Part shown: piece by piece, positions 1,130 to 57,555 of the stretch
How positions within the stretch are numbered: the first letter of the stretch is position 1
Layout: each line of letters starts with the position of its first letter
Assembly (NCBI GenBank): GCA_045564655.1
Contig: JBJLGX010000020.1
Location: 76,654-140,653, forward strand
DNA: 64,000 nt
From: Dehalococcoidia bacterium
GTDB lineage: Bacteria; Chloroflexota; Dehalococcoidia; Lucifugimonadales; UBA826
Direction: 5' to 3'
Notes under the pieces: model-generated
Databases searched by the model: none
What the model was told of the DNA's origin: nothing
Seen by the model: only the letters and a program-made list of their open reading frames with translations
Translations under genes and position numbers: made by a program

Positions 1130-1849
1130 TTATTCCAATTGTAGTGATGAAATATTAAAAAGTTCATCAAATTTTGAAATCGTTAGTTTACGTATTATTT
1201 TAGGAGCATCATATTTAGATGCTTGTCCGGATATTTCTATTTTAAGTACGCGGTAATCGTTTTTGTCTATAGTTAATTTTGTTTCTAAAGAATTTTCTAA
1301 AGTTTCTTCTAATAAGAGTTTGAATATACTTGGAGAAATTGTTCCTTGTATTATGTAATTGCTTGTATCGGAATTATCAACAGTTGGAGATTCTATTTGG
1401 TTAATTGTTGAAAATAGAATCTCATTTAAGCCATTTACAGCTACTGAAAGTGGATTGGCGTTGTTTTCGATGGATTCCCAGTTTTGGGTAATAGGGTTTA
1501 TATAATATGATTCTGATGCTCTTTTTATATATTTAGTTTTTAAAACGATATTTCCGAATAACAAATTTCCTTCAATATATATTTCATCAGGTGAATTGAT
1601 TCTTGCCGATGCTTCCGATAGCGTTAATCCCGTATTGCCTATAGGAGTTCCTGTACCTGATGAGTGTTTTAGATCTAATTGATAAGAATTTATAAGACTC
1701 ATCTCGTTTCTAGTATTTTCTAGAATTTCGTTGGCAGACATGTTTTGTGAAGATAAATTTAATTTAGTGTTATCTGAACACGATATAGAAAACACTAATA
1801 TTATAATTAGTAAACTAGAATAAACTAGGTTTAATTTTTTAAATAACAT
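1130..1849 (-). CDS. Lipoprotein, LppX/LprAFG-like (LolA-like fold) candidate
   Basis: Signal peptide plus lipobox (LVFSIS-C at residue 24) and a length of about 240 aa. Its stop TAA (1130-1132) is 1 nt from the MFS start codon. The family call rests on size, lipobox and synteny only. Confidence 0.45.
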   Translation of the reverse strand: MLFKKLNLVYSSLLIIILVFSISCSDNTKLNLSSQNMSANEILENTRNEMSLINSYQLDLKHSSGTGTPIGNTGLTLSEASARINSPDEIYIEGNLLFGNIVLKTKYIKRASESYYINPITQNWESIENNANPLSVAVNGLNEILFSTINQIESPTVDNSDTSNYIIQGTISPSIFKLLLEETLENSLETKLTIDKNDYRVLKIEISGQASKYDAPKIIRKLTISKFDELFNISSLQLE

Positions 1850-1882
1850 TTTATTATTATATCGTTAGATTTAGACATAACA

Positions 1883-1947: not shown

Positions 1948-3021
1948 TTAATTTCTGCTTTTTACGTATAGTACTCCACCAAGCCCCATCATAACCAATG
2001 ACAAAACAAATCCTATTTGGATCATCATCGAAAATAGAGGATCCCCAACTTTAGGAAGTCCTAGATTTAAAATATGATTGGATATTTCAAGAGCAGGGGC
2101 ATCAGCGCCTGATGTTATATCCATAGTTGCCATTGACTGCCCAGCAGCATACGCTTGAGCTGAACCACCTTCGTTAGCAGATGCTGTTATAGATCCGCTA
2201 TTATCAGCGTCCCATCCATTTCTTGCTGCAGAAAGCTCACTAACAATTTGGTTCACATGAATTTTTGATATAGCTACTTCAGATTGCGTAATGACATTGT
2301 CACTTGCATTAGTAGTTGCAGAATTAACCCAACTATTGATATTAGCAGTTACCGCTAGGACAGCAGTTGAAGAAGCAGTTATTCCAAGGTCGTCAGCTGC
2401 GACGGAAGCTGCGGTAGCATGAGCATCAATTTTTGCTGTATCGCCTGTTATAGATGAAAGAGATCCGATCATTGAATTAATATTACTATTTATAGATGCT
2501 GAATCTGATGATGTTTGAGCAGCCTTTGCTGATGCTAAAGCTGAATCTAGTGCATCACTAACAGCATTAATATCATCCAACATCCCATTTATTTCAATGA
2601 TTGCTGTTGAATTAACATGTCCTGCAAATGCAACCTCGTCACCTTGAGTTATTGTCACCCTGCTGTAGTTCGATATTAAGTTCGCACCATCGTAACCTGA
2701 TGATGAGCTATCAAATATCAATGAACCAGATCCGGTTGATTGGACAATGCCGTGGACAATGTCAGCTACAACATTAATGGAACCGATATTTAATACTTGC
2801 CTACCATCATTTGACTTTAAAGCAACTTGATAAGTCGATCCTTCTGAAGCCGGGGAAACTCCTGACAAATTAATGACAGCTGAATCGCTCTTCGATTTAT
2901 CTGTTTCTATAAGTACTTTTCCTACAATAGGTGATGCAGCTTCAACCTGCATAGCCATACTAGGCGCCACAAGAGTTAGCAGCACAATGGCCATAATTGC
3001 TATTATTTTGGTCCTGAACAT
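1948..3021 (-). CDS. Secreted Ser/Ala/Thr-rich cell-surface protein with LPxxG-type C-terminal sorting-like signal
   Basis: N-terminal signal peptide (…LVAPSMAMQVEAAS). The C-terminus is LPKVGD + hydrophobic stretch + KSRN. A strong RBS AAGGAGG precedes the ATG. Confidence 0.55.
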   Translation of the reverse strand: MFRTKIIAIMAIVLLTLVAPSMAMQVEAASPIVGKVLIETDKSKSDSAVINLSGVSPASEGSTYQVALKSNDGRQVLNIGSINVVADIVHGIVQSTGSGSLIFDSSSSGYDGANLISNYSRVTITQGDEVAFAGHVNSTAIIEINGMLDDINAVSDALDSALASAKAAQTSSDSASINSNINSMIGSLSSITGDTAKIDAHATAASVAADDLGITASSTAVLAVTANINSWVNSATTNASDNVITQSEVAISKIHVNQIVSELSAARNGWDADNSGSITASANEGGSAQAYAAGQSMATMDITSGADAPALEISNHILNLGLPKVGDPLFSMMIQIGFVLSLVMMGLGGVLYVKSRN

Positions 3022-9207: not shown

Positions 9208-10002
9208 TTATTTTAGTAAATCTAAGGGATTTGATTTCACGAGTTTTGTGATTTGGTCTTCAGTTAGACCCTTCTGAAGAAATGACGAAATAGCCATTCT
9301 TATTCCTTCTGCAGGCGGTGGATTGAACCACTGCCCAAAATTGCTAGTTACTATGCATCTTTCTGATCCAATAAATCCTATTTTTTCTATAATTTCTTCG
9401 ATTTCTATTGAACGATCTGAAGGCATACAAGAGGAAAAACGGAATTCAATAAAAGCTCCTAAATCGCTTAAATCCTTGAGGTCATTATTTTGAGGTATCA
9501 CATCATTGAAACCTATAATTATATTTGATATATGGTTTTTTTTAGCTTCTTTTAGGATTACAATACTCTCAGAATAAGAAAGATTATCTAATGCTAAAAC
9601 CATGTTTTTTTCACGAACTATTTTAAGTATTTCTTGAATTGATTCAGTTAAAGAATTATTTGGGGTCAATTTTTTTTCTTTAGATTCCGGTATCCATATT
9701 ACTTTCGTTTTTAAGGCAGCTGCAGATTCTACTACAGTGGGATTTATTCCACCAACAGATTCACTTAGCGTAATAGACCCCACAACAGATAAGCCGGGAT
9801 ACATTTGATTCAATATATAAGCAATAGGAGTTGTTAAGTATTGTGAAGATTTTAAAACAAAGCCTGCCATTTGAGATTCGTATGCATACCTTCCAGTCTC
9901 CATAGGATCCATTCGCAGATCTGATATATCTGGATACGATTGTGCGTTAAAGTCGATAGAACCTGTCAATATTTCTTGAACTTGTTTGTTTTTAGATTCC
10001 AT
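9208..10002 (-). CDS. Hypothetical protein, amidohydrolase-fold (DUF6282-like) candidate with apparently degenerate metal site
   Basis: The pattern …GFVLKSSQY.TTPIAY…VVGSITLSESVGGINPTVVE…KVIWIP resembles that family from memory. The expected N-terminal HxH is IDFNAQ here. This is a weak call. Confidence 0.3.
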   Translation of the reverse strand: MESKNKQVQEILTGSIDFNAQSYPDISDLRMDPMETGRYAYESQMAGFVLKSSQYLTTPIAYILNQMYPGLSVVGSITLSESVGGINPTVVESAAALKTKVIWIPESKEKKLTPNNSLTESIQEILKIVREKNMVLALDNLSYSESIVILKEAKKNHISNIIIGFNDVIPQNNDLKDLSDLGAFIEFRFSSCMPSDRSIEIEEIIEKIGFIGSERCIVTSNFGQWFNPPPAEGIRMAISSFLQKGLTEDQITKLVKSNPLDLLK

Positions 10003-33251: not shown

Positions 33252-35914
33252 GAGTTACTCGAATATTCTTTTATCAATACCGATACCATTGATAAAGCAT
33301 CATTTAATTTAGATGGTGATTTGCCACCTGCTTGAGCAATTTCTGATTTGCCACCACCACCTCCATCCATAATTTCGGAAACTTTTTTTGCTATTTCCGA
33401 TGCGTTCACACCTGTATCGGCTAAATCTTTTGTGACCATAATAATAATCATTGGATTTTCATTGATTATTGACCCAATAGCGATAACACCGCTTTTGATA
33501 TGTGTTTTAAGGGAATCGCCTGTTTTCCTCAGTAAATTAGCTGAAGAAGCATTTAGAGTAGTGCATATAAGGTTAATACCATTAATGTTTTCTATGGTTT
33601 CTAGTAATGATTTAGATTCTTGAACAATTAGTTTTTCTTCTAGTATTTCAATTTGTTTTGAATACGTTTCAACTTGATCTATAACAGTAAATATCTTTTC
33701 TTCTAGTTGGTCTGTAGACACATTTAAAGAATCTGATATTTTTGATATTAGTTGAAAGTTTTCTTGTACTAAATTTTCAGCTTCTCGACCACTTACAGCT
33801 TCTATACGTCGCATTCCTGCACCAATACTTGATTCGCCTATTATATAGATAGCACCTAATTCTCCTGTTGTATGCGCATGGGTTCCTCCGCATACTTCAA
33901 AGCTGAAACGACTTCCATTAGCTATTTCGATTAATCTGACTTTCTCTCCATACTTATCTCCAAAAAAGGCTAAGGCCCCGTCTTCTAAGGCCCCAGCATA
34001 AGTATTCTCACTCCGAGATATCAACATGTTTTCTCGGATTTTTCTGTTAACTACAGATTGTATTTTTGACATTTCAGATTCTGAAATGGGTTTCATATGA
34101 CTAAAATCAAAACGTAGCCTGTTCTCAGTAACCAATGAACCTGCTTGTCTAACGTGAGATCCTAAAACCTCCCTTAATGCAGCATGTAGCATATGCGTTG
34201 CAGTATGGTTTCTAGCTGTATCCTCTCTTTTAACACGATCGACTTCAGCTGATACCATATCATTGATGCTAAATTCACCTTCGGTTACTTTCCCGTAGTG
34301 AATTATTATTTCAGGGATTAACTCTTTTGTGTCATATATTTCTATGGTTCCTTTTGCTCCAAATATTTTGCCATTATCTCCTACTTGCCCCCCACCTTCA
34401 GAATAGAATGGGGTTAAATCAAGTATGATTTCTACTTCATCACCTTTAGACACTTTATCTTGAATGCTTGCTTTGTTAATGATTCCAATTATCGTGGAAT
34501 TTGATTCTAGAGAATCATATCCTACGAAAGTAGTTGGACTTAAATTTAATTCTTCATATATTTTTATTTTCCCAAAATCGTTACTGAAATTTGAACTCTC
34601 TCGAGCACGAGTTCGTTGTTTTTCCATTTCATCCTGAAAACCTTTTAGATCTATTTTTATATTTTTTTCAGAAGCTATTTCTTGAGTTACTTCTATTGGA
34701 AAGCCATAAGTGTCCCAAAGCTGAAATAAAATCGCACCTGACAATGATTTGTTTTTAGTTAAGGATTCCTCTAAAACCGTGTAACCATTTTCATATGTCT
34801 GTTTGAATCTTTCTTCTTCTAATTCTAAAACCGATAGTATGAAATCCTTATTGTTGTTTAGCTCAGGATAAGTTTTTTGCATTTGAGATATAACCACTTC
34901 GGCCATCGTTTGCATAAATGATTCTTTTATATTTATTTTCATTGCTAACCTTATGGCTCTTCTTATAACTCGACGAAGTACATATCCTCTACCTTCATTG
35001 CTAGGAACTACCCCATCTGCTATTAAGAATGTTGCACTTCTTGAATGCTCTGCTACAGCCCGAATTGCATAATCTATCTCAAGGGTTTCACCATATTGAA
35101 AAGAAGTTTTATTTAGAACTTCTTTTACTAGAGGTTTAAAAATATCTGTTTCGTACATTGTTGAAGCATTTTGCATTACAAGGGTAGCTCTTTCTAGGCC
35201 CATGCCAGTATCTATGCTAGGTGCAGGTAAGGGGGATTTTGATCCGTCAGGAGAATGATAGTATTGCATAAATACTAGATTCCAGAGTTCTACAAATCTA
35301 TTACAAGTCTCTCCTGTACTCATTATGTTTTCGCAGTTTGGGCCACATGATATTTTTAGGCACCCGGTATTTTCTCCAAAATCATAATGCAATTCACTGC
35401 AAGGGCCACAAGGCCCCTCTTCTCCATGTATAGGAGGCCCCCACCAATTGTCACTATCTCCAAATCTGTGTATCTTTTCTTGGGGTATCCCTACATCTTT
35501 CCATAATGAAAATGCTTCATCATCTGTTTCATGAATAGTTATATCAAATTTTTCAACAGGTATTTTTAAAGATTTTGTTAAGAACTCTAAAGCAAATGCT
35601 ATCGCATCTTTTTTGAAATAATCTCCAATACTGAAATTTCCAAGCATTTCAAATAATGTGTTGTGAGTAGAATCTCCAACAATATCTATATCGGGAGTTC
35701 TAAAACATTTTTGTGATGATGTTAAACGTTTATTTGGAGGAGATTGTTGGCCTGAAAAGAAAGATTTAAACTGGTTCATTCCAGCGATTGTTAAAAGCAG
35801 TGTTGGATCTCCCACAGGTATGAGAGAAGAACTTTGCATTCTTAAATGTCCCTTACTTTCAAAAAATGAAAGAAAGGATTCTCTTATTTCATCACTAGTC
35901 ATAGTATTCATCAC
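33248..35914 (-). CDS. alaS: Alanine--tRNA ligase
   Basis: 888 aa with FTNAGM-like AGMNQFK, FEMLGNFSIGDYFK, editing-domain HTATHMLH…CGGTH and a C-terminal DHHA1 GGGGG motif. Confidence 0.97.
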   Translation of the reverse strand: MMNTMTSDEIRESFLSFFESKGHLRMQSSSLIPVGDPTLLLTIAGMNQFKSFFSGQQSPPNKRLTSSQKCFRTPDIDIVGDSTHNTLFEMLGNFSIGDYFKKDAIAFALEFLTKSLKIPVEKFDITIHETDDEAFSLWKDVGIPQEKIHRFGDSDNWWGPPIHGEEGPCGPCSELHYDFGENTGCLKISCGPNCENIMSTGETCNRFVELWNLVFMQYYHSPDGSKSPLPAPSIDTGMGLERATLVMQNASTMYETDIFKPLVKEVLNKTSFQYGETLEIDYAIRAVAEHSRSATFLIADGVVPSNEGRGYVLRRVIRRAIRLAMKINIKESFMQTMAEVVISQMQKTYPELNNNKDFILSVLELEEERFKQTYENGYTVLEESLTKNKSLSGAILFQLWDTYGFPIEVTQEIASEKNIKIDLKGFQDEMEKQRTRARESSNFSNDFGKIKIYEELNLSPTTFVGYDSLESNSTIIGIINKASIQDKVSKGDEVEIILDLTPFYSEGGGQVGDNGKIFGAKGTIEIYDTKELIPEIIIHYGKVTEGEFSINDMVSAEVDRVKREDTARNHTATHMLHAALREVLGSHVRQAGSLVTENRLRFDFSHMKPISESEMSKIQSVVNRKIRENMLISRSENTYAGALEDGALAFFGDKYGEKVRLIEIANGSRFSFEVCGGTHAHTTGELGAIYIIGESSIGAGMRRIEAVSGREAENLVQENFQLISKISDSLNVSTDQLEEKIFTVIDQVETYSKQIEILEEKLIVQESKSLLETIENINGINLICTTLNASSANLLRKTGDSLKTHIKSGVIAIGSIINENPMIIIMVTKDLADTGVNASEIAKKVSEIMDGGGGGKSEIAQAGGKSPSKLNDALSMVSVLIKEYSSNS

Positions 35915-35944
35915 TTAATAATAAATCACTTTTAATATATATGG

Positions 35945-36910
35945 TTATACATCTACTACACATCTGAATCCTAAATTACCTGTTGAACTATCAGGAGTAT
36001 TAGAAGTTCTTGCTGCTATTCTATATCTATTGCAATACGAATCATGACATAGGTATGATCCTCCCTTTATGGTTTTAGCTGTTCCAATCTTGGGTCCAAC
36101 AGGATTATCTGTTGGACCGTTAATATGAAATGATGTACTAAACCAATCTGATTGCCATTCCCAAACATTACCAGACATATTGTATAATCCGTAACCGTTT
36201 TGGGAATAATATTTTGCTGGAGCAGTTCCTAGAAAACCATCTTCATTTGTGTTTTCATGAGGGAATTCTCCTTGCCATATATTACATAAGTGATTCCCGT
36301 CTTTTGATAAAAGATTATCACCCCAAGGAAATATTTTTTGATTTAATCCACCTCTAGCAGCAAATTCCCATTCTGATTCGGTAGGTAATCTTTTACCTGA
36401 CCAATTACAATATTCAATCGCATCATTCCAAGACACATGTGTTACAGGGTGGTTCATTATAGATTTTATAGTCGTTTTTGGTCCTGCGGGATGTTTCCAA
36501 GAAGCTCCGTCTACTTTTCTCCACCAAGGGGTATTTGGGGGAGATTCAGGTGATATTTTTAAAATATCATCTGGAGTTAAAAGATGGAATACAAAAGACC
36601 ATCCGAATTTTTCTGCTTCAGTTCTGTATTTAGTTGCATTTATAAATTTTGCAAATTGAGAATTAGTTACTGTTGTTTTGTCTATATAGAATGGGTTTAT
36701 GGTTATTTCTCTAACTGGGCCTTCGCCATCTTGTTTAAAAGCCAATTTGTAATCGGTTCCCATTGAAAATTTTCCACCTGGGATCAGAGCCATTTTCCGT
36801 GTATCTGCATTTGTTGATTTAAATGACTTATTAGGTGAGGCAATATGTGTTTCAGACACAGATGATTCTCTTGAAGCTGTGCAACAATTTTCTATATTAG
36901 ATTCTTTCAT
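35945..36910 (-). CDS. Formylglycine-generating enzyme (SUMF1/FGE-sulfatase family)
   Basis: GNVWEW and GGSYLCHDSYCNRYRIAARTSNTPDSSTGNLGFRCV closely follow the canonical FGE catalytic Cys pair region. Confidence 0.85.
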   Translation of the reverse strand: MKESNIENCCTASRESSVSETHIASPNKSFKSTNADTRKMALIPGGKFSMGTDYKLAFKQDGEGPVREITINPFYIDKTTVTNSQFAKFINATKYRTEAEKFGWSFVFHLLTPDDILKISPESPPNTPWWRKVDGASWKHPAGPKTTIKSIMNHPVTHVSWNDAIEYCNWSGKRLPTESEWEFAARGGLNQKIFPWGDNLLSKDGNHLCNIWQGEFPHENTNEDGFLGTAPAKYYSQNGYGLYNMSGNVWEWQSDWFSTSFHINGPTDNPVGPKIGTAKTIKGGSYLCHDSYCNRYRIAARTSNTPDSSTGNLGFRCVVDV

Positions 36911-37023
36911 GATAAAGAATGTAACAGGAGAAATCCTATATGTCAGTACTTTATGCTTAGCAATTTAATCAAATTATGAAAAATGTTGACACTCATTTTT
37001 AAAAAACGTACCATTTGGTAGCT

Positions 37024-37101
37024 ATGTGTTTTAATTATTTTACATATTATTACTTTGGTAGATATTTTATGTTGCCGAAGCACCGTATACTTTCTACATA
37101 G
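37024..37101 (+). CDS. Candidate Phe/Tyr-rich leader peptide (25 aa) of the DAHP synthase gene
   Basis: My translation is MCFNYFTYYYFGRYFMLPKHRILST*. Residues 3-15 contain 4 Phe and 5 Tyr. It lies between a promoter-like element (TTGACA 36986-36991; TACCAT 37009-37014) and an intrinsic terminator. There is no clear SD, so it may be leaderless. Confidence 0.5.
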   Translation: MCFNYFTYYYFGRYFMLPKHRILST

Positions 37102-37123
37102 GTTTGTTTGGAAGTTAAGAAAA

Positions 37124-37158
37124 GGTCTCGAGCAACTAGTGCCGAGACCTTTTTTTTT
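37124..37158 (+). terminator. Intrinsic terminator inside the 5' leader of the DAHP synthase gene (attenuator)
   Basis: Hairpin GGTCTCG-A-GCA / loop ACTAG / TGC-CGAGACC is followed by nine T (37150-37158). The upstream gene is divergent, so this hairpin does not end any gene. Confidence 0.7.
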
Positions 37159-37222
37159 GGATTGATAAAAATAGAATTAATAAAGAATAAAGATTGCCTG
37201 AAGAGTGAAAGGAGTTAATGTT

Positions 37223-38278
37223 ATGAGTATGTCACAAAAAAGTCATGTGGATGGATTGGGCTTTTCCTCCCAGAGACTTTTTAGTCCTTTGGAATTGGTT
37301 GGTAGGATTCCTAGATCTACTAGTGCTGAAAACACAGTTGAGAATGCTCGAGAAATTATACATAACATACTCGAAGGTCAAGATGATAGATTGATGGTTA
37401 TTGTTGGGCCGTGTTCGATTCATGACGATAAAGCTGCTTTGGAATATGCAAAAATGTTACAGGGTATTAAGAATAATATTAATGAAAAGATTTTCTTAGT
37501 CATGAGAGCATATTTTGAAAAGCCTCGTACGACTGTTGGGTGGAAAGGTTTTATTAATGACCCTGATTTAGATGAAACATATGATATTCCATCAGGTTTA
37601 GAAAGAAGTAGAGAACTTTTGCTTAGAATTAATGAACTAGGAATTCCTGTTGCGAGTGAATTTCTTGACCCTGTGGTTCCGCACTATATTGAAGATTTAG
37701 TTTCTTGGGTCGCTATTGGTGCCCGAACAACTGAAAGCCAAACTCACAGACAAATGGCTAGTGCTATTGGAATTCCTGTTGGATTTAAAAACGGAACAGA
37801 TGGTACTTTCCAAACAGCAGTAGATGCTATATTGGCTTCAAAACAAGAACATTCATATGTTGGAACGGGTCCAGATGGTCATGTGTGTGTATTAAGAACA
37901 GAAGGTAACCCCGATGGCCATATGGTTTTAAGGGGAGGCAAAGACGGCCCTAATTATGATGAAGCTTCTGTTGCTAGTGCATTGGAGTTACTAGGTAAAG
38001 AAAATCTTAATAAAAGATTAGTCATTGATTGTAGTCATGCAAATTCAAATAAAGACCATAATATGCAACCAATAGTTTTTGAAAACGTTATTAATCAGAT
38101 CACTAACGGAAATAAGGGCATCGCAGGTGTTATGCTCGAATCTCATATTAATCCTGGGAAACAGGCACTTGGTAAGAATGTTTCTGATTTAGAATACGGA
38201 ACATCTATAACTGACGCATGTGTAGGATGGGGAAAAACGAAAGAAATTTTAGAATGGGCGTCTGAAGAACTTAAGTAA
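37223..38278 (+). CDS. aroG: 3-deoxy-D-arabino-heptulosonate-7-phosphate synthase, class I-alpha (AroF/G/H type; feedback specificity unknown)
   Basis: IVGPCSIHD, KPRTTVGWKG, GARTTESQ.HR and IDCSHANS motifs. Start set at ATG 37223, 8 nt after AAAGGAG. Confidence 0.9.
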   Translation: MSMSQKSHVDGLGFSSQRLFSPLELVGRIPRSTSAENTVENAREIIHNILEGQDDRLMVIVGPCSIHDDKAALEYAKMLQGIKNNINEKIFLVMRAYFEKPRTTVGWKGFINDPDLDETYDIPSGLERSRELLLRINELGIPVASEFLDPVVPHYIEDLVSWVAIGARTTESQTHRQMASAIGIPVGFKNGTDGTFQTAVDAILASKQEHSYVGTGPDGHVCVLRTEGNPDGHMVLRGGKDGPNYDEASVASALELLGKENLNKRLVIDCSHANSNKDHNMQPIVFENVINQITNGNKGIAGVMLESHINPGKQALGKNVSDLEYGTSITDACVGWGKTKEILEWASEELK

Positions 38279-38354
38279 ATTGTTTGCGCATCCGGGCACT
38301 TCTTGTCGATCCCAAGATTTCCATAACGCTCTTTCGGTTTTTAAAAAAATGGGT

Positions 38355-38726
38355 TCAGTTATATTGTGGGGAATTTTTTGGTGGAATTCCGTTCATATAC
38401 AAACCTAAGTTAACGCCGCCGATAAGATGAATATGAGCATGAGATTGTGTTTGCATTCCATCGGTTCCGAAATTAGATAAAATCCGATATCCATTTGGGC
38501 ATCTTTCTTTCCCTAATTTATTAGCATATTTTGATATTTTTGTGACTAAATGTCCATTATCCCATAGTTCATTTTGTGTCATATGTGTTGTAGGAACTAA
38601 CAATAATTGAGTTGGGAACCAATATAGGTTGTTTTCGAATACTACGAAATCTTTTTCTTTATGAATGTACGTTGCTGGTTCATTTTCTGAAATAATGTCA
38701 CAAAAAGTACATTCGCTATTTTTCAT
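38355..38726 (-). CDS. HIT-family nucleotide hydrolase/transferase
   Basis: Histidine triad SHAHIHLIGG. An ATGA overlap joins it to the upstream loader gene. Confidence 0.8.
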   Translation of the reverse strand: MKNSECTFCDIISENEPATYIHKEKDFVVFENNLYWFPTQLLLVPTTHMTQNELWDNGHLVTKISKYANKLGKERCPNGYRILSNFGTDGMQTQSHAHIHLIGGVNLGLYMNGIPPKNSPQYN

Positions 38727-40093
38727 CGACCTGGTCTATAGTCTGGAGAATCGATTGTAATTATTTGTCCCATATTTGGATCTAATAATCTTGACGCTAT
38801 TGATGACCCTTGTTTGGCCATATTCATGATATCCATTCTGGTTGTTATAATCGTTGGCAGCTGATGGTTTTGTCTGTGAACAATTAATTGTGCAAGCTTA
38901 TCTTGTGACCAGGCTGTTTGCCTCTCTTCTCCTAATTCATCTAATATCATGAAAGGAGTTTGTTTTAATTGTAAAAATATAGATTCTGTATCTAGTGAAC
39001 TGTTAGGAGAAATTGATGCTCCTAAGTAACTCATTAATTCAGGAACTACGGCAAAGAAAACTTCAGTCCCTTCAGCTAATATTTTGTTTGCAATTGATGC
39101 AGCAAGGTGAGTTTTTCCACATCCGGTGTTAGGGCTATAAAAAGTTAGCCATCCTTCTGGTTGTTCAGCATATATCTTAGCTGTTTTCAAGGCTGTTTCA
39201 AGGCTGTTTCTGTTTGTGTTACTTGAATTAGGAAGTCCACGTTTATTGAATGTTTCGAAAGTCATTCTTTTTATATCTGGAGGAAGCATTCCAAAGTCTG
39301 ATGACATTCCTTCTGAATATATTTCATCTGTATATAATATCTTCCCTAGTTTTGCATCTGTAACCCTACTTTTTATAAATGGATGCAATGATTCAATCTT
39401 ATCCGTTGTTGTTATGACAGTTGGCATTTTTAGGTTTGCGCGATGGTTGAGGATTGACAATAATTTGTCAGATGACCAGTTTTGGGATAAAGATGATGAG
39501 AAATCATCTAATATCAGTACAGGAGCTTTTTTCACATGATCTGATATGTCAAAACTTTGATAAGATATTTGGTCATTAAAATTTGTTTGCCTTAACTGCT
39601 CTCTTAAATCGGTACTATGTATAAAAAATACAGGTATTCCAGATTTAACGCACTGATTTGCTATTGCTGCAGCTAAGTGTGTTTTTCCACTAGCGTGAGG
39701 TCCATTTATCAAAATCCAGTTTTCTGGATTTGTTGCGAAGCCAAAAGATTCTTGGAATGTGTTTTGGAATAATCCCGAATTGTTAATATTGCCTTTACCT
39801 TTGGGGTTAAGTGACTCAAATGTATAGTTTGATAAATCAGACAGATTGCTGTAGTCATGCAATCTTTTTTCAATTGTTGTTCTTTTTGAGGATTCACGGC
39901 AAACACAAGGGAGGTGATCTCCGAAGTCAGGGTGTTCTATTGGGACGTCTGAAGTCACCCATCCTCTGTCATAGCAAATTTCGCATTCTATTTTGCCGTA
40001 CTCAGCATTTAATGCAGGGGATGATTTTGCGTCAGTATTTTTAATATTGTCAGCGGTATCTAGTTTGTCGATTATGTCCCTTATGTTCTCCAT
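38723..40093 (-). CDS. Helicase-loader-like protein with two tandem DnaC/IstB-type AAA+ modules and an N-terminal Cys4 motif
   Basis: - Module 1 (aa ~88-255): GPHASGKTHLAAAIAN, VLILDDFSSS
- Module 2 (aa ~276-450): SPNTGCGKTHLAASIAN, FMILDELGEERQTAW
- The two modules are collinear.
- N-terminus: CEIC…(23 aa)…CVC. Confidence 0.7.
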   Translation of the reverse strand: MENIRDIIDKLDTADNIKNTDAKSSPALNAEYGKIECEICYDRGWVTSDVPIEHPDFGDHLPCVCRESSKRTTIEKRLHDYSNLSDLSNYTFESLNPKGKGNINNSGLFQNTFQESFGFATNPENWILINGPHASGKTHLAAAIANQCVKSGIPVFFIHSTDLREQLRQTNFNDQISYQSFDISDHVKKAPVLILDDFSSSLSQNWSSDKLLSILNHRANLKMPTVITTTDKIESLHPFIKSRVTDAKLGKILYTDEIYSEGMSSDFGMLPPDIKRMTFETFNKRGLPNSSNTNRNSLETALKTAKIYAEQPEGWLTFYSPNTGCGKTHLAASIANKILAEGTEVFFAVVPELMSYLGASISPNSSLDTESIFLQLKQTPFMILDELGEERQTAWSQDKLAQLIVHRQNHQLPTIITTRMDIMNMAKQGSSIASRLLDPNMGQIITIDSPDYRPGR

Positions 40094-40685
40094 TGTCTCT
40101 ACCTTCTATTTTCCATCGATTTAAAATACTTGAAATATATGCCCAATTCCTTTTATTTTGCACCAAAGACTGTTTAATCGCATCTTCAATCCATTCTACA
40201 GGATATAGATTTTCTGCTTCCTTTATTAATTCTGCAACATGTGGAGTTATGATTCCAATATTTTGTTCGTAGAACGAATAAATATTAATTACATCATGAT
40301 TGTTTTCCCATTGGTCTGCTTCGGTACTTTCAACATTTAAATCTGATTTTTCTATTCTTTCTCTTATTGATTCAGAGTTTAAATAGATTATTTTATGGTC
40401 GTCAGCTTTTTGTGTCGAAGATTTTATTATCCCATAACTTTCAAGTTGAGCTAATGTCCCCTTTATTTTATACGGGCTTCCTATTAGCTTAGAAATCAAT
40501 TTGTCTGTCATGATCTCTGATTCAGTTATGAATGGAGGTTTGCGATTGTAGACTTGGAGAAGCCACATTATTCGAAGCATTAACTTCACTTCAGATATAT
40601 CTGATAAAGATTCTAGCAAAGTGTTAAATACAGGGGCAGGGATAGGGATATACTTTACGTTCTTTTTGAACTCTTCAAAATCCAT
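40050..40685 (-). CDS. DnaD-domain replication initiation protein
   Basis: The C-terminal DnaB_2/DnaD block is YSFYEQNIGIITPHVAELIKEAENLYPVEWIEDAIKQSLVQNKRNWAYISSILNRW. It lies between dnaB and the loader gene. Confidence 0.7.
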   Translation of the reverse strand: MDFEEFKKNVKYIPIPAPVFNTLLESLSDISEVKLMLRIMWLLQVYNRKPPFITESEIMTDKLISKLIGSPYKIKGTLAQLESYGIIKSSTQKADDHKIIYLNSESIRERIEKSDLNVESTEADQWENNHDVINIYSFYEQNIGIITPHVAELIKEAENLYPVEWIEDAIKQSLVQNKRNWAYISSILNRWKIEGRDNGEHKGHNRQTRYR

Positions 40686-40689
40686 TGCA

Positions 40690-42099
40690 TTAATATGTTG
40701 TTATCTGAGTTTGGCTTAGATTTTCAAATTTCACAAAAGATTCTTTAAAATATAATTTAAAACTGCCTACTTTACCATTTCTATGTTTTGCTATTACAAT
40801 TTCGGCAACATTTTCGGGGTAATCACGGGTTGGGTTTTTTTGATTCCATTGTTCTTCTGTAATATAACGATCTTCTCTATGTATGAAAGCGACTATGTCG
40901 GCATCTTGTTCTATGCTTCCGCTTTCACGCAAGTCGGACAATAATGGTCTGTGATCTGGACGCTGTTCTATTGCCCTACTTAATTGAGAGCAAGCTAATA
41001 CAGGTACATTTAAATCTCTAGCTATTCCTTTTAATGCTCTCGATATTTCCCCCATTTCTTGTACCCTGTTGACATTTCGCCTATCGCCAATGCCTCCAAT
41101 TAATTGCATATAATCAACAATGACTAAATCTAATCCCCTTTCTGTTTGTAATCTACGAGCTTTACTTCTCATTTCTACTATACTCTGTATAGGAGTGTCA
41201 TCTATGTATATTGGATGATCAGATATGTCTCCTATAGCATCTATAAGTCTTCCTTCCTCAGCGGATTGTAGTAATCCTAATCTTATTCGGTTACTTGGTA
41301 TCTCTGTTACGCTAGATAGTAATCGCAATCCTATCTGTTCAGAACTCATTTCAAGACTAAAAATCCCAACATTTTTTCCAGATCGAGCTGCGTGCTGAGC
41401 CATGTTAAAAACAAAAGTAGATTTTCCTAAGCTAGGCCTTGCTGCTACGATTACTAAGTCTGATCTTTGTAATCCGCCCCCCAATATAGTGTCAAATTGA
41501 TCAAATCCGGAAGATATGGGTGCTAATCGAGCCATGTCAGGCCCTTGGTTAGATTCTTCCATATACTGGTCATATACTTCTCTGATATGAGTAAAGTCGC
41601 GTACTTCGCGGTCGGATCTAATTGAAAACAACAAATCTTCCGCTTTTGTTAATGCATTCTCAGTATCTGGTTCATTATCGTAACCTATTTGAGCTATTTC
41701 GCTTGAAGCTCCAATTAGTTGACGCATAATAGAAGTTTTTCGGACTAGCTGGCCAAAATGGTATATGTGTGTAGGGCTAGGTACTGAATTAACCAAACTG
41801 CTTAAGTATTCGTTACCACCTATGGACGGTAGCTGCTCATGTATTGCTAGTTCGTGCGAGACTGAAATTTGGTTTATGGGTTCATTTCTTGATGCAAGAT
41901 TTAAACATGCTTGGTAACAAAATTTGTTCTTTTCTGAATAAAAATCTTCAGGTTTAAGGAATCCGGTAATTTTTGTAATAGAATCACCATCCAATAATAA
42001 CGACCCAATCACAGAATTTTCTGCGTCGCTATCATGTGGGGAAACCTTTTCCGAGTACACAGAATCCTCCTGGGTAAAAACAATTTTAAGATTAGCCAA
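40690..42099 (-). CDS. dnaB: Replicative DNA helicase DnaB
   Basis: PHDSDAENSVIGSLLLD N-terminus, Walker A ARPSLGKST, Walker B VIVDYMQL. No intein insertion. Confidence 0.95.
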   Translation of the reverse strand: MANLKIVFTQEDSVYSEKVSPHDSDAENSVIGSLLLDGDSITKITGFLKPEDFYSEKNKFCYQACLNLASRNEPINQISVSHELAIHEQLPSIGGNEYLSSLVNSVPSPTHIYHFGQLVRKTSIMRQLIGASSEIAQIGYDNEPDTENALTKAEDLLFSIRSDREVRDFTHIREVYDQYMEESNQGPDMARLAPISSGFDQFDTILGGGLQRSDLVIVAARPSLGKSTFVFNMAQHAARSGKNVGIFSLEMSSEQIGLRLLSSVTEIPSNRIRLGLLQSAEEGRLIDAIGDISDHPIYIDDTPIQSIVEMRSKARRLQTERGLDLVIVDYMQLIGGIGDRRNVNRVQEMGEISRALKGIARDLNVPVLACSQLSRAIEQRPDHRPLLSDLRESGSIEQDADIVAFIHREDRYITEEQWNQKNPTRDYPENVAEIVIAKHRNGKVGSFKLYFKESFVKFENLSQTQITTY

Positions 42100-47771: not shown

Positions 47772-47860
47772 GGAGAGATGGCCGAGTGGATTAAGGCGCT
47801 GGTCTCGAAAATCAGTATGAGAATTTATTTTCATCGTGGGTTCGAATCCCACTCTCTCCG
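47772..47860 (+). tRNA. tRNA-Ser (anticodon CGA), type II with long variable arm; no encoded CCA
   Basis: Hand-folded. Acceptor GGAGAGA/TCTCTCC, anticodon stem CTGGT/ATCAG with loop CTCGAAA, 7-bp variable stem ATGAGAA/TTTTCAT, T-arm GTGGGTTCGAATCCCAC. Confidence 0.85.
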
Positions 47861-47868
47861 CAGTACAT

Positions 47869-47961
47869 GGAGAGATGCTAGAGTGGCCGAATAGGCGCGA
47901 CTGGAAATCGCGTGTTCCCTCACAAGGGGAACCGTGGGTTCGAATCCCACTCTCTCCGCCA
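47869..47961 (+). tRNA. tRNA-Ser (anticodon GGA), type II; CCA encoded
   Basis: Acceptor and T-arm are identical to the upstream tRNA. Anticodon loop CTGGAAA, variable stem GTTCCCT/GGGGAAC, 3' GCCA. Confidence 0.85.
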
Positions 47962-55744: not shown

Positions 55745-55932
55745 GCTATAACTCCTAAATTATTAGTATGTTTGAATGAATTGTATCTTTATTTTAGTTA
55801 AATTTGTACTACCTATCATTTAGGTTTTTTGAATTTGACACAGGGTAAACACCAATTGACACCTTTCGTTATCTGTTCATATACTTGAGCGGATATGGCA
55901 ATTTGTCTCAGTGCAGATTTTTTTGGAGTGAT

Positions 55933-57555
55933 ATGACTAAATTTATTTTCATTACTGGTGGTGTAGTTAGTTCCGTAGGGAAAGGTGTATGTGTAGGATC
56001 TATTGGTAGGATATTAAAAGATCGAGGCCTTTCTGTTTCTTTAATGAAACTAGACCCTTATTTGAATGTTGATCCTGGAACTATGTCTCCATATCAACAC
56101 GGAGAAGTTTTTGTTACTAATGATGGGAGTGAAACAGACCTAGATTTAGGGCACTATGAAAGATTTGTAAATGTTGACTTAGGAAAAGCTTCTAATACAA
56201 CAGCAGGTCAAGTGTACAGTGATGTTATATCTAGAGAAAGACGAGGAGAATTTTTAGGTGGAACAATACAGGTTGTTCCTCATGTAACAGATTCTATAAA
56301 AGCTAAAATGTTGAATCTTGCCGAAGAAACTAAAGCAGATGTTATTGTTGTTGAAGTTGGCGGAACTGTTGGGGATATTGAAGGCTTGCCTTTTTTGGAA
56401 GCTATCCGGCAAATGAGAAATGAGGTGGGTAGTAATAATGTTTTTTATATCCACTTAACCTTTTTGCCTTATATAACATCAACATCTGAGTTAAAGACTA
56501 AACCTACTCAACATAGTGTTAGGGAATTGCGGGGTATAGGGATACAGCCTGATGCTATTATATGCAGAAGTGATCATGATGTGCCCGAAGATCTCAGGCG
56601 TAAAATAATGATTCATTGTGATGTGCCTATTGAAGGCGTTCTTATGTTGCCCACTGTATCAACTATATATGAGGTTCCTTTAATACTAGAAAAACAAGGA
56701 ATGGGGAACTTAATTAAAGATACGATGTCTCTCAAAACAAAAAATGATGATGTGACCCTTTCGGATGACTGGAAAAATCTTGTTTCAATGATTAAATCAG
56801 ATAAAGATCATATTAAAATATCTGTTGTTGGGAAATATGTAGATTTACATGATGCGTATATCTCTGTTAAGGAAGCGTTAATACATGCAGGAATAAAGTA
56901 TTCTCGCAATATTGAAATTAAATGGGTTGATTCTGAGAATATCGAAGAAGATGGTCCTGAAAAATATTTGAATGATTCAGCGGGTGTTGTTGTCCCAGGT
57001 GGATTTGGATATAGAGGGGTCGAGGGCATGATTTCAGCTGTTGAATATTGTCGTATAAATGACGTGCCTTACCTAGGCCTTTGTTTGGGCATGCAAGTCA
57101 TGGTCATTGAAGCTGCTAGGAGCCTTTTGGATAAAAAATCTGCTAATTCTACAGAATTTGTACAGGATACTCCTGATCCTGTCATTCATATTATGGAAGA
57201 TCAAAAAAATATAACTGACAAAGGTGGAACAATGAGGTTGGGAGGTTATCCTTGTGATCTTGTTAATGGAACTATTGCATCTAGAGCATATGGGTCTTCC
57301 AAAAATACCATTATGGAGAGACATAGACATAGATTTGAATTCAATAATTTATACAGAGAAGATTTAATGTCTGTGGGCCTTAAGCCGTCCGGGATTTCAC
57401 CTGATGGCACATTAGTAGAGATTGTAGAATATTCTAACAATGAATTTATGCTTGGGACTCAATTTCATCCAGAATTTCTCTCTAGGCCTACAGAACCGCA
57501 CCCTATTTTCAGTGAATTTGTTAGCGCGATAGTGAATAAGAGTCAAAAATTATAA
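55933..57555 (+). CDS. pyrG: CTP synthase
   Basis: KFIFITGGVVSS.GKG, DPYLNVDPGTMSP, and GATase LGLCLGMQ…HRHR.E.N. Start set at ATG 55933, behind a GGAG RBS. Confidence 0.96.
   Translation: MTKFIFITGGVVSSVGKGVCVGSIGRILKDRGLSVSLMKLDPYLNVDPGTMSPYQHGEVFVTNDGSETDLDLGHYERFVNVDLGKASNTTAGQVYSDVISRERRGEFLGGTIQVVPHVTDSIKAKMLNLAEETKADVIVVEVGGTVGDIEGLPFLEAIRQMRNEVGSNNVFYIHLTFLPYITSTSELKTKPTQHSVRELRGIGIQPDAIICRSDHDVPEDLRRKIMIHCDVPIEGVLMLPTVSTIYEVPLILEKQGMGNLIKDTMSLKTKNDDVTLSDDWKNLVSMIKSDKDHIKISVVGKYVDLHDAYISVKEALIHAGIKYSRNIEIKWVDSENIEEDGPEKYLNDSAGVVVPGGFGYRGVEGMISAVEYCRINDVPYLGLCLGMQVMVIEAARSLLDKKSANSTEFVQDTPDPVIHIMEDQKNITDKGGTMRLGGYPCDLVNGTIASRAYGSSKNTIMERHRHRFEFNNLYREDLMSVGLKPSGISPDGTLVEIVEYSNNEFMLGTQFHPEFLSRPTEPHPIFSEFVSAIVNKSQKL

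Follow-up and report, generated by a model that had tools for sequence, protein, structure and literature searches.

In a 64-kb stretch of contig JBJLGX010000020.1 from a marine Dehalococcoidia bacterium of the SAR202 group (the window, meaning this whole stretch), the gap in front of a class-I 3-deoxy-7-phosphoheptulonate (DAHP) synthase gene holds an element that is probably, at roughly 80%, a ribosome-mediated transcription attenuator responding to tyrosine and phenylalanine. At the level of sequence, the element combines an aromatic-rich leader open reading frame (ORF), a downstream intrinsic terminator on the same strand and an antiterminator exclusive with that terminator, which is the combination by which leader-peptide attenuators are recognized. 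The attenuator had been proposed in a first-pass annotation of the same DNA, and the proposal is supported by conservation among 19 leaders, by their substitution pattern and by the co-evolution of two segments of the leader RNA, regions 2 and 3. The downstream gene was assigned to class I, not to a particular isozyme, with the TIGR00034 aroFGH model at 462 bits against a cut-off of 173.

Conceptual translation of the 25-codon leader ORF confirmed the aromatic density reported earlier, with four Phe and five Tyr among residues 3-15, or 9 of 13. Base composition gives a binomial expectation of 7.5e-7 per window for this density, and a six-frame scan found a stop-free 13-codon window with nine Phe or Tyr in only two places in the 64 kb. 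The leader thus lies at the extreme of the six-frame distribution, in agreement with the earlier remark that AT bias alone would be insufficient to explain it. The second such window, at 9667, was ruled out as a leader, being an antisense frame within a coding gene.

A protein search with the DAHP synthase returned SAR202/Dehalococcoidia (Chloroflexota) genomes at 70-88% identity, and further relatives were taken from the protein database together with their contigs. The same layout precedes class-I DAHP synthase genes in 19 distinct leaders, whose DAHP synthases are 58-88% identical to that of the window. It was found at 11 of 13 genome loci and, wherever the DNA extended far enough upstream, at all further SAR202-type loci. 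Aligning the upstream regions of orthologous genes, a check suggested in the first-pass annotation, showed that the F/Y run and the terminator are conserved and that the terminator has compensatory changes. A sequence profile of the element gave one match per locus, always upstream of DAHP synthase, and no second copy elsewhere in the 64-kb window. The profile also recognized the element (E = 9e-8) at locus L109, where the DAHP synthase is 58% identical and the neighboring genes differ.

At a more distant marine relative, L110 (DAHP synthase 60% identical), a leader reading MKTKFYTYYYFFERLESL and a terminator were found at L110:1857-1967, within the gene order trpA, chorismate mutase, leader, DAHP synthase, ribF and tyrS. 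The L110 leader has no detectable nucleotide similarity to the element and no evident promoter or Shine-Dalgarno (SD) sequence of its own. Two SAR202 relatives, L008 and L011 (upstream of position 3001), have neither the leader nor the FGE-sulfatase gene that is the upstream neighbor in the window; alaS lies there directly divergent from DAHP synthase, across a gap of about 90 nucleotides (nt). The attenuator must thus have been gained or lost within the group. The leader at L097:1080-1300 appears decayed: a promoter and a terminator-like hairpin persist there, with an ORF of only eight codons (VIDSDYMR) that includes one Tyr.

The substitution pattern among these leaders supports a leader peptide. 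Of the three frames, only that with the F/Y codons is open throughout the 19 distinct leaders, and stops interrupt the other two in most of them. The ORF has 18 codons in L110 and 22-30 in L109 and the SAR202-type relatives. Its spacing is also kept: in 15 of 17 SAR202-type leaders, the core Phe and the stop are 45 nt apart, and 15-22 nt separate the stop from the base of the terminator (22 nt to the hairpin in the window). The first hairpin always has a Y-F core at its 5' edge, in most cases YYF and otherwise NYF or YAYF. Additional F and Y residues vary in number and position, giving runs such as NYFTYYYF, NYFAYRYNYF, RYFFDYYYYF, GYYKKYYF, KYYFYWLYYF and KFYTYYYFF, and the L100/L104 clade adds Trp to the run (Y-W-F/L-Y-Y-F). 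Across the leaders, Tyr codons number 71 and Phe codons 44. Between close relatives, changes inside the run are only synonymous (TAT to TAC or the reverse) or swaps of F and Y (TTT and TAT), while outside it non-synonymous changes dominate and the peptide is not conserved. What is conserved is the amino-acid content of the leaders, not their peptide sequence. A recurrent L-P-(K/R) after the run reflects CUGCCG or UUGCCG, the core of region 2, and is better explained by RNA pairing than by a function of the peptide.

The promoter named in the first-pass annotation, TTGACA-17-TACCAT, lies exactly at the coordinates given there and is the best promoter-like site within 35800-38900. TTGACA and the 17-nt spacer recur in all 18 SAR202-type leaders that were scanned. 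In all SAR202-type leaders, the start codon (ATG, or GTG in L001) lies 9-12 nt past the -10 box and has no SD sequence; what had been raised as a caveat, the missing SD before the leader ATG, is itself a conserved property. This spacing implies a 5' untranslated region of 0-5 nt, and the leader ORF is therefore probably initiated in a leaderless-type manner. TTG at 37015 was considered as an alternative start and dropped, as it is not conserved. No promoter-like site was found between the terminator and the DAHP synthase start at any of the 19 loci scanned, a distance of 46-90 nt in the relatives with the SD sequence included, so that expression of DAHP synthase must come from read-through.

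Two other promoter-like sites of the window lie close to a start codon. At about 936 on the minus strand, TGGACA-16-TAGGTT is separated by 11 nt from the ATG of a long ORF; the product looks, by inspection, like a membrane transporter, and the arrangement is possibly that of an SD-less, short-leader mRNA for an ordinary protein in this genome. A second strong site (TTGACA, 18 nt, TATACT) falls within 55847-55936 and is followed 9 nt on by a 13-codon ORF, MAICLSADFFGVI, which contains GGAG; its TGA and the start codon of pyrG (CTP synthase) overlap in ATGA. The stretch may hold a small upstream ORF with coupling to pyrG, or it may be no more than the 5' untranslated region of that gene.

The terminator described at first pass, GGTCTCG-A-GCA/ACTAG/TGC-CGAGACC followed by T9, matches the DNA exactly. 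Its hairpin has a predicted energy of -18.7 kcal/mol, and the predicted fold of the whole leader has -40.8 kcal/mol, a value that none of 200 dinucleotide shuffles equaled (z = -4.0). In a strict scan, defined by a hairpin of -11 kcal/mol or below abutting a T-run, the leader terminator at 37150 gave the sole intergenic match in the 64 kb; three further matches fall within coding regions. A simple terminator scan missed the leader hairpin because of its bulged A. In this genome, few genes seem to end in a canonical intrinsic terminator. A GC-rich hairpin with a T-run was found in all of the leaders compared, and RNAalifold gave a consensus terminator of 13 pairs, nine of them with compensatory changes.

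Upstream of the terminator, the unconstrained minimum free energy (MFE) fold of the window and of most relatives holds a hairpin 1:2, whose loop is not conserved, and a spacer hairpin between regions 2 and 3 is present in most relatives without conserved sequence. To mimic a stalled ribosome, the A site was placed on the core Phe codon, -15 to +12 nt were masked and the 3' arm of the terminator was omitted. Under these constraints, region 2 pairs with the terminator 5' arm and loop in all 19 leaders (z typically -2 to -3). In the window, the predicted antiterminator consists of GUUGC:GCAAC, CGA:UCG, G:C and ACC:GGU and joins 37071-37084 with 37124-37136. Constrained folding thereby recovered the pairing proposed by eye in the first-pass annotation, GTTGCCGA (37071-37078) with TCG-A-GCAAC (37128-37136), and extended it by G37080:C37127 and ACC 37082-84:GGU 37124-26.

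Comparison between clades supports the co-evolution of regions 2 and 3, as far as it can be read from sequence. Different clades carry different but complementary pairs, namely CCGCC:GGCGG, CUGCC:GGCAG, UACCGG:CCGGU, GCUGCCGA:UCGGUAGC and GGUUGUCGAGG:CCUCGAUCAAUC, which indicates that otherwise unconstrained bases of the terminator loop track region 2. In an alignment-free test with one representative per clade, cognate 2:3 duplexes were compared with non-cognate ones; the means were -18.8 and -14.0 kcal/mol for nine representatives (p = 1e-4), and -18.0 and -12.3 kcal/mol for 11 representatives, where 20,000 permutations gave no value as strong as the one observed. Cognate duplexes were likewise favored for the terminator 3:4 (p < 5e-5) and for the complementarity of hairpin 1:2 (p = 0.02), and none of five control region pairs gave a significant difference. 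In the MAFFT alignment, 67-69% of column-wise cells are paired for 1:2 and 2:3, as against 22-58% in slid registers, and double changes in the antiterminator exchange U-A with C-G at columns 26/92 and G-C with A-U at columns 27/91.

These features suggest the following mechanism. Transcription would start from TTGACA/TAnnAT, and the 5' end of the RNA would coincide with the AUG of the SD-less 25-codon ORF or precede it by 2-5 nt. When Tyr and Phe are plentiful, the ribosome would pass the aromatic run and reach the stop, 15 codons after the core Phe and 15-22 nt before the terminator, where it would cover the 3' edge of region 2 (a predicted overlap of 1-11 nt in 16 of 17 SAR202-type leaders). 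Behind this ribosome, or where no ribosome is present, regions 1 and 2 would re-pair, region 3 would be free for region 4, and polymerase would terminate at T9 to yield a leader RNA of about 135 nt. When Tyr or Phe is scarce, the ribosome would stall on the Y-Y-Y-F codons at 37045-37056 with its footprint over region 1 (37053-37060); the freed region 2 would then pair with the emerging 37124-37136, block the terminator and allow read-through into the SD-led DAHP synthase gene. Translation of the leader ORF, stalling and kinetic competition are the parts of this scheme that we infer. A purely thermodynamic switch was rejected, since the terminator stays in the masked MFE fold of all 19 leaders; the switch must thus be kinetic. 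Control is likewise kinetic in the classical trp leader attenuator of E. coli.

Several observations weigh against an attenuator. The persistence of the terminator in the masked equilibrium fold of all 19 leaders is one of them, and the absence of the element from L008 and L011 and its decay in L097 show that it is dispensable. The leader ORF lacks an SD sequence, and the 9-12 nt from the -10 box to the ATG exceed the typical distance from -10 to +1, so that the RNA may carry a 5' untranslated region of 2-5 nt; predicted leaderless genes are moreover a minority in Chloroflexi, at about 4.7% in 4 of 12 genomes (PMC3160421). The codons for Y14 and F15 (37063-37068) lie in the loop of hairpin 1:2, where stalling would mask region 2 and favor termination. 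As to the pairing, hairpin 1:2 has 66.7% of column-wise cells paired, which is above slid registers and not above column shuffles; nor does the antiterminator exceed column shuffles column-wise, and only two of its pairs show clean double changes. RNAalifold, applied to an alignment ending before the 3' arm, gave no consensus antiterminator, because the pairing register varies between clades. Finally, the cognate test depends on clade representatives of our own choosing and on region boundaries taken from one MAFFT alignment.

Among other explanations, a translation-independent cis-regulatory RNA, in which the conserved UAUUAUUUU and its hairpin are bound by a TRAP- or PyrR-like protein or a small ligand and the ORF is incidental, would be compatible with the missing SD sequence, with the high conservation of the nucleotide core TATTATTTT and with the 1:2, 2:3 and 3:4 alternatives, which would suit any attenuator. 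We consider it improbable, because the start position, the open frame (19 of 19, with other frames stopped) and the stop position are conserved, whereas the core itself varies at synonymous third positions and by exchange of F and Y, extra aromatic codons appear at variable positions, and the loop of the hairpin is not conserved. The same amino-acid bias is also reached with different nucleotides in unrelated lineages (L110, L058, L072, L084 and L086), and neither a T-box nor any other Rfam family was detected.

The roughly 135-nt unit is bracketed by a strong promoter and a strong terminator, as would be expected of an independent small gene for a small protein or small RNA (sRNA) that lies near a separately expressed DAHP synthase by coincidence. 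Trans-acting sRNAs derived from attenuators do exist, as described for rnTrpL/peTrpL of Sinorhizobium (PMC7968998 and PMC7298713), and the leader RNA or peptide may have a trans role alongside attenuation. As a replacement for attenuation, an independent gene appears still less probable than the ligand-binding RNA: none of the 19 loci has a promoter-like site after the terminator, the spacer there can shrink to 46-60 nt, with an SD sequence at its end, the unit is linked to DAHP synthase even among different neighbors (L109 and L110), the peptide outside the F/Y core is not conserved, and region 2 co-varies with the terminator, which a stand-alone gene would not need. A chance AT-rich ORF beside a terminator, possibly a leftover bidirectional one, would draw on the genome's 35.6% GC, in which TTT and TAT codons are common, and on the A-tract on the 5' side of the hairpin. 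Its probability is negligible, as the conservation data already contradict a chance origin: the F/Y density is extreme in the six-frame distribution, and the element is kept in GC-richer relatives, where AT bias cannot yield YYF runs. The FGE-sulfatase gene is on the minus strand and hence divergent from DAHP synthase, so that there is nothing to terminate between the two genes.

Leader-peptide control of DAHP synthase seems, from sequence comparison, to have evolved repeatedly. A metagenome scan with a DAHP synthase alignment returned only distant enzymes (46-56% identity) that were useless for covariation, because the search patterns were the most conserved peptides. Of 74 distant class-I DAHP synthase loci that were scanned, each with 200 nt or more of DNA in front of the gene, at least four (L058, L072, L084 and L086) carry a sequence-unrelated small aromatic ORF followed by a terminator just upstream of DAHP synthase. 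Their enzymes show about 50% identity, and L058, L072 and L084 lie on contigs of 58-68% GC. The latter three have a -10-like box 6-7 nt before the start codon, a textbook leaderless layout. A broader proposal is that of a multi-input attenuator on a leaderless mRNA that controls shikimate-pathway entry and reads the charging state of tRNA-Tyr and tRNA-Phe together, tRNA-Trp being a further input in the L100/L104 clade, with the terminated leader RNA or peptide perhaps also acting in trans and with the design being widespread; we regard this extended version as speculative and rather unlikely as a whole. The features of the attenuator proposed here, its neighboring genes and the distant aromatic runs are collected in Table 1.

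Table 1. Features of the DAHP synthase leader and its surroundings; positions refer to the window unless a locus is named.
Feature	Position	Strand	Remark
-35 hexamer TTGACA	36986-36991	+	promoter scan, 10/12 match together with -10
-10 hexamer TACCAT	37009-37014	+	17-nt spacer from -35; family consensus TAnnAT
Leader ORF, 25 codons + TAG, MCFNYFTYYYFGRYFMLPKHRILST	37024-37101	+	ATG 37024, TAG 37099-37101
Aromatic codon run F-N-Y-F-T-Y-Y-Y-F (codons 3-11)	37030-37056	+	putative regulatory codons
Y-Y-F core kept across the family	37048-37056	+	TAT/TAC TAT/TAC TTT
Hairpin 1:2	37053-37080	+	unconstrained MFE fold
Region 1, CUUUGGUA	37053-37060	+	5' arm of hairpin 1:2
Region 2, 3' arm of hairpin 1:2, UGCCGAAG	37073-37080	+	
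Region 2, antiterminator strand, GUUGCCGA-A-G-C-ACC	37071-37084	+	ribosome-masked fold
Spacer hairpin	37089-37115	+	folding; holds the leader stop codon (37099-37101)
Region 3, GGUCUCGAGCAAC, terminator 5' arm and loop start	37124-37136	+	common to antiterminator and terminator
Intrinsic terminator	37120-37158	+	A-tract, stem 37124-37149, bulged A37131, loop ACUAG, T9 37150-37158
SD sequence AGGAG of the DAHP synthase gene	37210-37214	+	
Class-I (AroF/G/H-type) 3-deoxy-7-phosphoheptulonate synthase, 351 amino acids	37223-38278	+	TIGR00034, PF00793
FGE-sulfatase family gene, upstream neighbor	35945-36910	-	domain search
Aromatic leader with run QYYFWFFY	L058:1499-1567		
Aromatic leader with run PYFWFFY	L072:526-597		
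Aromatic leader with run FSFWFSY	L084:724-801		
Aromatic leader with run FCFGYYFYF	L086:~1756-1863		

Downstream of DAHP synthase, a replication-initiation cluster on the minus strand (38723-42099) is kept in relatives, with a HIT-family gene between the cluster and DAHP synthase. The cluster encodes a 456-amino-acid protein with two IstB/DnaC-like AAA+ modules, a 211-amino-acid protein with a DnaD/DnaB_2 domain and a 469-amino-acid DnaB-like replicative helicase, the last assigned by eye. Further along, 47772-47961 holds two tRNA-Ser genes (anticodons CGA and GGA) with a 7-nt gap between them.

SAR202 bacteria are abundant, uncultured deep-ocean Chloroflexota, and to our knowledge almost nothing is known of their gene regulation. 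The element offers a SAR202 example of a sigma-70-type promoter, of probable leaderless translation and of the use of an intrinsic terminator. If it acts as proposed, the committed step of aromatic amino-acid synthesis would be tuned to the supply of Tyr and Phe at the RNA level. If the multi-input version were also true, such leaders would form a widespread, repeatedly evolved and overlooked alternative to repression of the TyrR/TrpR type. The alignment can seed an RNA family that is absent from Rfam, and the element can correct gene calls that extend the DAHP synthase start into the terminator. One database gene call at L097, P0011 (382 amino acids), starts DAHP synthase at a TTG inside the terminator; another, P0028 (330 amino acids), is conversely truncated.

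The proposed attenuator is a classical mechanism in a new bacterial group and gene context, and it belongs to no described sequence family. Rfam 15 gave no gathering-level match in the leader region of the window or at 16 related loci. The best leader family within 36800-37400 at E <= 10, His_leader, reached 23 of the 49 bits needed, mostly through the terminator; this weak match and those to STnc320 and MicC were dismissed as coming from the terminator. A T-box gave no match even at E <= 10 in 36800-37400 and none at the 16 related loci. No paper linking SAR202 to attenuation or leader peptides was found in a literature search, and an earlier comparative study of Actinobacteria listed no RNA elements for Phe or Tyr (PMC1262725).

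In the literature searched, leader-peptide attenuation of DAHP synthase is documented only in Corynebacterium, and the element would extend it to a second phylum. In C. glutamicum, the aroR leader (F-Y-F) lies upstream of aroF, and limitation of Phe was effective while that of Tyr was not (Neshat et al. 2014, as reported in PMC11802643); this attenuator had been predicted earlier (PMC4046766). In both systems, DAHP synthase follows a short leader ORF in which Phe and Tyr codons stand side by side (F-Y-F in aroR, Y-Y-F in the element), and the logic by which ribosome stalling raises read-through at aroR is the one proposed for the element. Unlike aroR of the Actinomycetota, the element occurs in Chloroflexota/SAR202, and its run is longer and dominated by Tyr (up to 9 of 13 codons), with Trp added in some clades. 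Since the effect in C. glutamicum came from Phe limitation only, the dual Tyr/Phe specificity of the element is something that we infer. The relation documented between the two is one of functional analogy, which may reflect homology or convergence. A leader peptide formed without a ribosome-binding site is also cited for C. glutamicum ilvB (reference 42 in PMC4046766).

The enterobacterial leaders (trpL-trpEDCBA, pheL-pheA, pheM-pheST and the his, leu, thr and ilv leaders) share with the scheme proposed for the element the four-region logic of 1:2, 2:3 and 3:4 with a U-tract, regulatory codons on the 5' side of region 1, a stop codon from which a terminating ribosome would reach into region 2, and a terminator more stable than the antiterminator, with control predicted to be kinetic. 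Unlike these leaders, which are represented in Rfam by families such as His_leader (RF00514) and Trp_leader (RF00513), the element has no gathering match, its ORF has no SD sequence, and Tyr and Phe codons are mixed instead of one amino acid being used. It would also regulate the first enzyme of the common pathway, a step that E. coli controls by TyrR/TrpR and allostery. The Cys-responsive leaderless polycysteine ORFs of mycobacteria, as described in bioRxiv 10.1101/834739, are a further parallel, as short leaderless regulatory ORFs in which a codon run senses amino-acid supply; they differ in amino acid, pathway and phylum. T-box riboswitches and TRAP, which control aromatic genes in Firmicutes, serve the same end, as tRNA charging or the level of an amino acid decides there whether a terminator or an antiterminator forms in the 5' leader. 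They need no ORF and have a specifier loop and a T-box sequence, nothing like which was detected in the element.

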